The notes beneath the pieces are model-generated. The model was not told the origin of the DNA and did not search any database. It saw only the letters and a list, made by a program, of their open reading frames with translations. Positions 31,875 through 32,030 of a stretch of 33,127 nucleotides of DNA are shown piece after piece (the stretch's first letter is position 1; each line of letters begins with the position of its first letter). The stretch covers positions 1 to 33,127 of IMG/VR virus record IMGVR_UViG_2534682108_000003, one strand, 5' to 3'. A program made the position numbers and the translations under genes. Source of the DNA: a virus (taxonomy: Duplodnaviria; Heunggongvirae; Uroviricota; Caudoviricetes).

Positions 31875-31950
31875 TGGTGCTGGTTAACGGACTTGAACCG
31901 CTACCCATTCGCTTACAAGGCGACCGCTCTACCATTGGAGCTAAACCAGC
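31875..31950 (-). tRNA. phage-encoded tRNA-Thr (anticodon TGT)
   Basis: 76 nt on minus strand: perfect 7-bp acceptor stem GCTGGTT/AACCAGC, D-stem GCTC/GAGC, anticodon loop CTTGTAA, T-arm AGCGG-TTCAAGT-CCGTT, discriminator A then CCA; one mismatch at the top of the anticodon stem. Confidence 0.55.
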
Positions 31951-31955
31951 ATATT

Positions 31956-32030
31956 TGGCGGGACAGCGTGGACTCGAACCACGATAAGAAGGTTAACAGC
32001 CTTCCGTAATGACCTTTATACGACTGACCC
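31956..32030 (-). tRNA. phage-encoded tRNA-Asn (anticodon GTT), possibly degenerate
   Basis: 75 nt on minus strand: anticodon stem GAAGG/CCTTC perfect, loop CTGTTAA, T-arm CGTGG-TTCGAGT-CCACG, 3' GCCA; one mismatch each in acceptor and D stems. Confidence 0.45.

Follow-up and report, generated by a model that had tools for sequence, protein, structure and literature searches.

A phage 21-type tRNA-Asn/tRNA-Thr cassette behind the late terminator of a lambdoid prophage, and its possible roles in codon supply and in resistance to tRNA nucleases

Introduction

Two tandem tRNA genes, tRNA-Asn(GUU) followed by tRNA-Thr(UGU), occupy positions 31875-32030 on the minus strand of a 33,127-nt stretch of DNA from a virus of the class Caudoviricetes (IMG/VR record IMGVR_UViG_2534682108_000003, positions 1 to 33,127; hereafter the window), where they directly follow the intrinsic terminator tR' of the late leader. 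These are almost certainly genuine tRNA genes that are under selection and belong to the phage 21 family. The account that we favor, with some reserve, is that they form a functional phage 21-type cassette in which tRNA-Thr both augments the supply of a decoder and serves as a replacement resistant to the Old nuclease of phage P2, whereas tRNA-Asn is likelier to act as a resistant replacement.

The pair itself is already known. Its genes, its position and the idea that it supplies decoders for particular codons can be found in published work and in annotated database records, and the action of the tRNA-Thr allele against Old was published in 2025. As annotation the pair adds nothing new; its value lies in its context. 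A Q-controlled tRNA-Thr(UGU) is present in about 7% of complete Escherichia coli genomes; its phage 21 allele defeats the P2-lambda interference nuclease in experiments, and the adjoining tRNA-Asn(GUU) matches another target of the same nuclease class. Should tRNA-Asn prove to be a resistant replacement, the cassette would constitute a common and easily scored marker of prophage-versus-prophage conflict, and a gene whose purpose was called unclear by the authors who described phage SfI (PMC3636060) would be explained.

Results

Two intact tRNA genes of the phage 21 type

ARAGORN identified three tRNA genes in the window, two of which coincide exactly with the coordinates given in an earlier note on this DNA, made from the sequence alone, which had described two minus-strand tRNA genes separated by 5 nt. 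Both genes lie well above the gathering score of 29 bits for Rfam family RF00005, with 61.2 bits for tRNA-Thr and 55.3 bits for tRNA-Asn, so that the covariance-model check proposed in that note came out in favor of both. The corresponding E-values for the whole 33-kb window (4e-11 and 2e-9) are far beyond chance, and the two alignments span the full model, positions 1-71 of 71. The structural description given at the time also holds: each gene has a 7-nt anticodon loop with U33 and a canonical T-loop (GUUCGAGUC / GUUCAAGUC), tRNA-Thr folds almost perfectly, its single non-pair G27.A43 leaving a 4-bp anticodon stem, and tRNA-Asn contains two non-pairs, U4.U69 in the acceptor stem and U13.U22 in the D stem.

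The established identity elements for charging by the E. coli enzymes are present in both molecules, namely G1-C72, C2-G71, G35 and U36 for threonyl-tRNA synthetase (ThrRS) in tRNA-Thr, and G34, U35, U36 and G73 for asparaginyl-tRNA synthetase (AsnRS) in tRNA-Asn, the latter set matching host asnT. The 3' GCCA of tRNA-Asn, which had been taken as a sign of decay, is simply an encoded CCA preceded by the discriminator G73, which host asnT also has. The tertiary nucleotides U8, A14, G18G19, U54-U55-C56, A58, C61 and U33 are complete in tRNA-Asn. The same set is kept in tRNA-Thr except at position 14, which is C here (C or U among alleles) rather than A; A14, the partner of U8, is nearly universal in tRNAs. 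The tRNA-Thr allele of phage 21 likewise has C14 and is functional in vivo, and the need for the anticodon has been confirmed with anticodon mutants of tRNA-Thr6 (PMC12445682). Neither C14 nor the published evidence that the phage 21 allele acts as a replacement resistant to nuclease (PMC12445682) had been noticed in the earlier note.

In phage 21 (OL657228, CPT_21_64/65) the two genes stand in the same order, with a tRNA-Asn identical to that of the window at 75/75 positions and a tRNA-Thr identical at 75/76, the sole difference falling at unpaired position 26 (G26 in the window, A26 in phage 21). The 5-nt spacer is AACAU there and AAUAU in the window, and these two forms were found 60 and 51 times, respectively, among the IMG/VR copies. 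From the stop codon of Q to the beginning of tRNA-Asn, a segment that includes the late promoter pR', the Q-binding element, the pause element and tR', the two phages are base-for-base identical. Nucleotide identity is 98.5% over the 3' end of Q and the tRNAs, and homology stops about 62 nt past tRNA-Thr. The lysis genes of phage 21 encode the S21 pinholin and a SAR endolysin, whereas those of the window encode a lambda-S-type holin and an R-type endolysin, and the virion genes are unrelated. The phage 21 late region was reportedly characterized by Guo, Kainz and Roberts in 1991, and the pair is said to have been described since then.

A similar degree of identity is seen in Sf6 (75/75 positions for tRNA-Asn and 75/76 for tRNA-Thr), whose record annotates the genes as "similar to phage 21". 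The promoter-proximal sequence of Sf6 differs from that of the window, and the virion modules differ in phages of the Sf6, SfI, BTP1 and ST64T types. The SfI genome paper of 2013 places the same Asn(GUU)/Thr(UGU) tandem downstream of the Q gene and names Sf6, ST64T, PS3 and phage 21 as other carriers (PMC3636060). In many P22-like phages the tRNAs, the segment trailing them and the holin side are common with the window at 96-98% identity.

The corresponding genes of the host (thrU and asnT/U/V/W of E. coli K-12) have the same anticodon loops (CUUGUAA and CUGUUAA), discriminators (A73 and G73), identity elements and encoded CCA as the window tRNAs. Overall identity to them is nevertheless low, at 64.5% for tRNA-Thr against thrU and 57.9% for tRNA-Asn against asnT, with differences in the stems, in the 4-nt variable loop of tRNA-Asn and at C14 of tRNA-Thr. 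A recent copying of host tRNA genes is ruled out by this identity of only 58-65%.

The cloverleaf is conserved in both genes

Conservation was assessed in 102 homologous copies drawn from two IMG/VR scans, each anchored in one of the tRNAs, which allowed an unbiased view of the other. The tRNA-Asn gene is identical to that of the window in 72 of these copies, and tRNA-Thr corresponds to one of two alleles (G26 or A26) in 81. Most of the remaining changes keep a pair intact or concern unpaired positions. Double changes that compensate each other affect pairs 5-68 and 49-65 in tRNA-Thr and gene positions 6-66, 7-65 and 28-42 in tRNA-Asn. Among the distinct variants, 93.7% of the cloverleaf cells are paired in tRNA-Thr and 89.8% in tRNA-Asn, compared with 21-56% in slid controls; six pairs in tRNA-Thr and four in tRNA-Asn are altered on both sides, although part of the tRNA-Thr signal comes from three host-like chimeric alleles. 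The covariation score was reached by none of 500 shuffles. The cloverleaf is under purifying selection in both tRNAs.

These data bear directly on the suggestion, made in the earlier note, that tRNA-Asn may be decaying, in which case it would be a non-functional copy and only tRNA-Thr would matter. Its two non-Watson-Crick pairs, the broken pairs of several singleton variants and the failure of the SfI authors to find a clear reason for the gene (PMC3636060) can all be cited to this effect. However, the non-pairs are fixed rather than variable: U13.U22 is unpaired in 20/20 tRNA-Asn variants and U4.U69 in 18/20, as G27.A43 is in 17/18 variants of tRNA-Thr, and a tRNA-Asn variant with 36 differing positions retains the same acceptor stem, U4.U69 included. 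Broken pairs are confined to the singletons. Together with the compensatory changes at three pairs, the intact identity elements and CCA, the covariance-model score and the occurrence of an identical tRNA-Asn sequence in phage 21, Sf6 and this prophage despite their widely different genomes, this pattern speaks strongly against decay, which we regard as very improbable.

Codon usage favors a supply role for tRNA-Thr

Codon usage was compared between 31 late open reading frames (ORFs) of the window (8050 codons) and 39 annotated K-12 housekeeping genes (14,574 codons). By absolute excess among the 61 codons, ACA ranks first (20.4 per 1000 in the late set and 5.2 in the host set; 3.9-fold, p = 6e-25) and AAU second (27.6 against 12.5; 2.2-fold), while AAC is unchanged. 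By ratio, AGA and AGG lead and ACA is third. ACA is concentrated in the tail genes, most tail and tail-fiber genes using it 27-59 times per 1000 codons compared with 3-12 times in the terminase, portal and capsid genes. This unevenness is most marked at positions 5345-10510 and 15432-19804 of the window.

A control that is limited to two carriers of the pair and two phages without it gave the same ordering for ACA, which reaches 17.5 per 1000 in the carrier Sf6 and only 10.1 in lambda and 13.1 in P22. For AAU the corresponding values are 23.5 in Sf6, 13.7 in lambda and 25.5 in P22. ARAGORN found no tRNA genes in P22 or in the first 22 kb of lambda. In K-12 the tRNA-Thr(UGU) gene is single-copy, and its product is the only reader of ACA (PMC12445682). 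The same ACA bias was reported for SfI, again with no clear reason for tRNA-Asn (PMC3636060); the codon examined for tRNA-Asn in that study was CAA, which is the wrong one.

Supply is thus a reasonable explanation for tRNA-Thr. The corresponding argument for tRNA-Asn is weak and does not discriminate, because K-12 has four tRNA-Asn genes and P22 is equally rich in AAU without carrying the tRNA. The earlier proposal that the pair supplements codons enriched in late genes therefore stands for tRNA-Thr and loses its force for tRNA-Asn.

Anticodon-stem positions read by tRNA nucleases are altered in both tRNAs

P2 Old, a Toprim nuclease and the cause of classic P2-lambda interference, kills by cutting host tRNA-Thr(UGU). 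Its cut sites are paired CNG motifs in the anticodon stem, at positions 28-30 and 40-42, and it cuts other tRNAs, including tRNA-Asn(GUU), more slowly (PMC12445682). Phage tRNA-Thr(UGU) genes rescue Old-expressing cells: the tRNA-Thr of phage 21 protected such cells, resisted cleavage and restores ACA decoding, whereas host tRNA-ThrU gave little or no protection. This resistance has been ascribed to C28U/G42A together with a shortened anticodon stem, both of which are needed, and defense evasion is favored in the discussion of the same paper as a main reason for phage tRNAs (PMC12445682).

AriB of the PARIS system targets the tRNAs Lys(UUU), Thr(UGU) and Asn(GUU), cutting between positions 40 and 41 within U36-A-A-U39-C40/A41 (the slash marks the cut). 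A change of U39 to A alone abolishes AriB cleavage of tRNA-Lys, yet restoring the site in the tRNA-Lys of phage T5 does not restore cleavage, so that other AriB determinants must exist; the T5 variants of tRNA-Lys, tRNA-Thr and tRNA-Asn were all required for rescue from PARIS (PMC12409363). For HepS of Gifsy-1, tRNA-Thr(UGU) is among the secondary targets (PMC13043305).

Table 1. Anticodon-stem positions of host and window tRNAs (a slash in the third column marks the AriB cut position)
tRNA	Positions 28-30 and 40-42	Positions 36-41	Anticodon stem
Host thrU	CUG and CAG	UAAUC/A	5 bp
Window tRNA-Thr	UCG and CGA	UAAGC/G	4 bp
Host asnT	CGG and CCG	UAAUC/C	5 bp
Window tRNA-Asn	AAG and CUU	UAACC/U	5 bp

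Both window tRNAs have lost U39, and the CNG motif is altered in both (Table 1). The changes fall exactly at the anticodon-stem positions that the nucleases read, and the loops are unchanged. As in the nuclease-resistant tRNAs that virulent phages encode, the substitutions affect the stem only (28/42, 39/41 and 27-43), and, as with the T5 tRNA-Lys, tRNA-Thr and tRNA-Asn and with the phage tRNA-Thr genes active against P2 Old, the anticodons are the same as those of the host targets. Unlike the large tRNA arrays of virulent phages, the window holds a two-gene cassette of a temperate phage, under Q control and without tRNA-Lys.

A dedicated anti-PARIS set of the T5 type was considered and rejected, as ARAGORN found tRNA-Lys(UUU) neither in the window nor in any of 50 related cassettes; without tRNA-Lys, the pair alone therefore cannot defeat the PARIS system of strain B185. 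Resistance has been established for the tRNA-Thr allele only, and against Old only (PMC12445682), and the lambdoid tRNA-Asn gene is not discussed in either of these nuclease papers, both of 2025 (PMC12445682, PMC12409363). Judging from the positions of its substitutions, a counter-defense role of tRNA-Asn is plausible. A wider proposal, which we put forward tentatively, is that the cassette as a unit, tRNA-Asn included, might be a dedicated counter-measure of temperate lambdoid phages against the Toprim tRNA nucleases of competing P2/P4-type elements (P2 Old, PARIS AriB and their relatives). A resistant tRNA-Thr(UGU) together with a resistant tRNA-Asn(GUU) would then be supplied just when late proteins are made, and U4.U69 and U13.U22 of tRNA-Asn, like G27.A43 and C14 of tRNA-Thr, could conceivably be adaptive rather than defects, a suggestion that is equally speculative.

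The cassette lies between the late terminator and the lysis genes

Along the direction of transcription the minus strand carries, in order, the Q gene, the two tRNAs, a 242-nt spacer, the holin gene, the genes for endolysin, Rz, Rha, terminase and portal, and the virion genes (Table 2). Placement between Q and the holin gene, typical of lambdoid late leaders, had been recognized in the earlier note and is borne out by the Pfam matches of the two flanking genes. Leader coordinates are those of the curated phage 21 annotation, carried over by an alignment that has no gaps and is 100% identical.

Table 2. Features of the late leader and its flanks in the window, in the order of transcription
Feature	Position	Strand	Basis and remarks
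Q21-type antiterminator gene, 162 aa	32122-32610	minus	Pfam PF06530, E = 8.8e-25; length equal to phage 21 Q
Late promoter pR' with Q21 loading site	32073-32115	minus	coordinates transferred from curated phage 21 annotation; predicted
pR' -35 element	32110-32115	minus	transferred from phage 21; predicted
Q-binding element	32092-32107	minus	transferred from phage 21; predicted
pR' -10 element	32087-32092	minus	transferred from phage 21; predicted
Transcription start	32080	minus	transferred from phage 21; predicted
Sigma-dependent pause element	32073-32079	minus	transferred from phage 21; predicted
tR' intrinsic terminator	32031-32078	minus	hairpin 32040-32078, then U7AU3 32031-32039; identical to annotated phage 21 terminator
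tRNA-Asn(GUU)	31956-32030	minus	ARAGORN, Rfam; 75 nt, encoded CCA, discriminator G73, 4-nt variable loop
Spacer between tRNA-Asn and tRNA-Thr	31951-31955	minus	5 nt, AAUAU
tRNA-Thr(UGU)	31875-31950	minus	ARAGORN, Rfam; 76 nt, encoded CCA, discriminator A73
Conserved trailer hairpin just 3' of tRNA-Thr	31818-31867	minus	IMG/VR alignment; consensus fold -20.6 kcal/mol
Lambda-S-type holin gene, first protein-coding gene after the tRNAs in the late operon	31309-31632	minus	Pfam PF05106, E = 2.4e-30

The tR' hairpin has a fold of -20.2 kcal/mol (z = -6.1), and its U-tract directly abuts G1 of tRNA-Asn. At least three promoter/terminator classes carry the module among the IMG/VR copies, and the terminator T-tract abuts tRNA-Asn in every one of these upstream classes. 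No separate sigma-70-like promoter for the tRNAs was found by a simple promoter/terminator scan, which is a weak negative in that the same scan missed pR' and tR', because the loop of the terminator exceeds the limit of the scanner and the -10 hexamer is weak. An Rfam search (E <= 5) of the 242-nt pre-holin spacer for a third, degenerate tRNA or another RNA family returned only a meaningless 11-bit match to SgrS.

The approximately 50 nt that follow tRNA-Thr are alignable in 100% of the loci. The trailer hairpin within the flank is kept in 101/101 IMG/VR copies, with compensatory changes preserving its outer stem in one diverged variant, and is succeeded by a terminator-like U-run in phage 21-type alleles and by AUUCUACGC in the window. 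The hairpin belongs to the mobile module, possibly as a 3' processing or stability element or as a second terminator.

Distribution of the pair and variation of the cassette

Among 5426 complete E. coli genomes, 369 contain a match to the bare 156-nt pair, 347 of them at a coverage of at least 80%, and 1383 match a 501-nt query around it. In hundreds of E. coli genomes the genes are labeled by RefSeq as tRNA-Asn and tRNA-Thr, with an "antiterminator Q family protein" next to them. Matches were also obtained in 170 phage records, phage 21, Sf6, SfI, BTP1 and many P22-like Salmonella phages among them; such phage-collection counts are the basis for any spread to taxa other than E. coli, Salmonella and Shigella. 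A loops-only pattern scan of genome contigs for diverged copies returned, among the matches listed, ordinary chromosomal tRNA arrays of Firmicutes.

In related phages the slot after tR' is occupied by a variable tRNA cassette, as revealed by ARAGORN on IMG/VR loci with a single anchor match (L247-L275, L135, L156, L201, L202, L229 and others). The combinations seen include Asn-Thr, Asn-Gly(UCC), Asn-Thr-Gly, Asn-Thr-Arg(UCU), Asn-Phe(GAA)-Thr-Arg(-Gly) and Thr-Asn, and further Ser(UGA)-Thr-Asn, Asn-Tyr(GUA)-Thr...Ser, Ile(GAU)-Thr, Ser(GCU)-Thr-Arg-Met(CAU) and Met(CAU)-Arg-Gly-Thr. The genes with a CAU anticodon could be candidate AUA-reading Ile tRNAs. The codons read by Arg(UCU), Gly(UCC) and Ser(UGA), namely AGA, GGA and UCA, belong to those most enriched by ratio in this prophage, a match that favors supply as one driver of the cassette generally. 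Asn, Phe and Tyr are not rare-codon readers and therefore need another reason.

The ileZ-argN-argO cluster of Stx phages (933W-type) is known to occupy the same slot, between Q/pR'/tR' and the first late genes, and its proposed logic is the same, namely decoders for codons over-used by phage genes (cited in PMC3636060). Its isoacceptors are different, being Ile and Arg rare-codon readers, and it is not homologous to the window pair, although some relatives of the window cassette add Arg(UCU) and a CAU-anticodon tRNA.

Chimeric tRNA-Thr alleles occur in IMG/VR (for example L132, L145, L158, L182, L225 and L229), in which the first 25 nt are of the phage type and the remainder is identical or nearly identical to host thrU. 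One of them equals K-12 thrU exactly from position 26 onward, and the commoner chimeric form has a 3-bp anticodon stem. This mosaic arrangement points to an exchange between the tRNA genes of prophage and host, by recombination or gene conversion.

Discussion

A proposed mechanism and its alternatives

In the account that we favor, RNA polymerase initiating at pR' would stop at tR' unless modified by Q, as expected from identity to the characterized phage 21 region, and Q-dependent read-through of tR' would therefore yield the tRNAs along with the late mRNA for lysis and virion proteins. Release of both tRNAs, whose CCA ends are encoded, would be expected from RNase P and the 3' trimming enzymes of the host, and AsnRS and ThrRS should charge them because the identity elements read from the sequence are intact. 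The charged tRNAs would then sustain ACA and AAU/AAC decoding during late protein synthesis. For tRNA-Thr the benefit would be twofold, consisting of an extra supply of a scarce decoder and of the replacement of host tRNA destroyed by Old, by analogy with the phage 21 allele, from which the window allele differs by one unpaired base. The likelier benefit of tRNA-Asn would be as a replacement that is poorly cut by Toprim nucleases such as P2 Old and PARIS AriB, because the stem positions read by these enzymes are changed.

Several observations weigh against this account, or against the defensive part of it. Old is triggered early, by Gam, whereas the window tRNAs would be made late. The BTP1 transcriptome paper offers no more than indirect hints of expression. 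AGA and AGG are enriched approximately 10-fold, yet the cassette is without a tRNA-Arg, and on the side of codon supply the carrier control sets only two phages against two and P22 uses Asn and AAU just as heavily with no tRNA genes of its own. tRNA-Lys(UUU), the main target of AriB, is found in 0/50 related cassettes. The anticodon stem of the window tRNA-Asn is not shortened (5 bp, 100% paired among variants), and one minor natural tRNA-Asn variant keeps CNG on both strands (CAG/CUG), both of which count against a defense role for this gene. Finally, the rescue from Old by phage 21 tRNA-Thr was plasmid-based and gave small colonies, and escape of phage 21 itself from P2 interference is not reported in that study (PMC12445682).

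The classical interpretation (PMC3636060) is that the pair does nothing more than provide decoders for over-used A/U-rich codons, ACA and AAU, the divergent stems reflecting foreign ancestry and Old resistance being incidental. The first and second ranks of these codons by absolute excess, the higher use of ACA in carriers than in lambda or P22, and the rare-codon readers Arg(UCU), Gly(UCC) and Ser(UGA) of sister cassettes all agree with this. On the other hand, it has difficulty with tRNA-Asn, for which there are four host genes and which P22 does without at the same Asn usage; it leaves to coincidence that the changes in both tRNAs sit exactly on nuclease determinants; and rescue from Old by the phage 21 allele, where host tRNA-ThrU achieves little or nothing, is an experimental result (PMC12445682). 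We therefore consider supply by itself rather unlikely. The converse, in which both tRNAs would be nuclease-resistant replacements and the codon bias a consequence of the tRNAs or of base composition, draws on the fact that the three main AriB targets include Thr(UGU) and Asn(GUU) (PMC12409363), which are also the prime target and one slower target of P2 Old (PMC12445682), that HepS cleaves Thr(UGU) secondarily (PMC13043305), and that determinants are changed in both tRNAs, in keeping with the preference for defense evasion expressed in the Old paper (PMC12445682). The absence of tRNA-Lys(UUU) from every related cassette, the unshortened tRNA-Asn stem and the variant that retains CNG point the other way, as do the Arg(UCU) and Gly(UCC) sister tRNAs, which fit rare codons better than known nuclease targets, and the tracking of ACA usage with carriage of the pair; a purely defensive cassette seems to us distinctly improbable.

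Two further explanations do not depend primarily on decoding. If the tRNAs were punctuation for RNA processing, RNase P and RNase E sites would detach the tR' leader and set the 5' end or stability of the late mRNA, with decoding secondary. The location of the genes exactly between the terminator and the first late gene, the hairpin conserved after tRNA-Thr in all 101 copies, and the description of the BTP1 lytic operon as beginning directly after two tRNA genes (BTP1 transcriptome paper) would fit such a function, but a late operon of this kind is expressed by lambda and P22 with no tRNA at all, the strict conservation of anticodons, identity elements and anticodon loops goes beyond what processing alone demands, and phage 21 tRNA-Thr does decode, the anticodon being required for rescue in the related Thr6 experiments (PMC12445682). 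This explanation is accordingly very unlikely. Least probable of all, to the point that we give it hardly any weight, is that the tRNAs persist as conserved islands for mosaic exchange or as attachment sites: phages that differ in Q/promoter region, lysis genes and virion type do share the module, and chimeric phage/host tRNA-Thr alleles do exist, but conservation of the cloverleaf, anticodon and identity elements would be left unexplained, no integrase or att structure adjoins the cassette, and recombination here more likely results from conservation than causes it.

Prophage context

A tRNA-Arg(CCU) gene lies at positions 3424-3498 on the plus strand (Rfam, 65.6 bits), and about 125 nt further on is a tyrosine integrase gene (3624-4817, plus strand; PF00589 with an arm-binding domain). 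Because the integrase gene follows the tRNA-Arg gene, the prophage is probably integrated at tRNA-Arg(CCU), with its other end located beyond the right edge of the window. Positions 1-2000, outside the prophage and beyond the tRNA-Arg gene, have a G+C content of 38-39%, compared with 44-51% elsewhere.

The virion and packaging region (5301-30300, 25 kb) attains a best nucleotide coverage of 6% among 50,697 phage records, yet it still encodes a recognizable terminase, a portal and a large DUF3383 protein (18314-19804). By this nucleotide comparison, the familiar module of Q, tRNAs and lysis genes is joined to a structural module that is unrepresented among sequenced phage isolates. Just upstream of Q, and overlapping its start, is an ORF of 145 aa (32601-33038, minus strand) with no Pfam match at E <= 0.001. 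The counterpart position in Sf6 holds a NinI-like phosphatase gene, of which this ORF may be a shortened or divergent copy.

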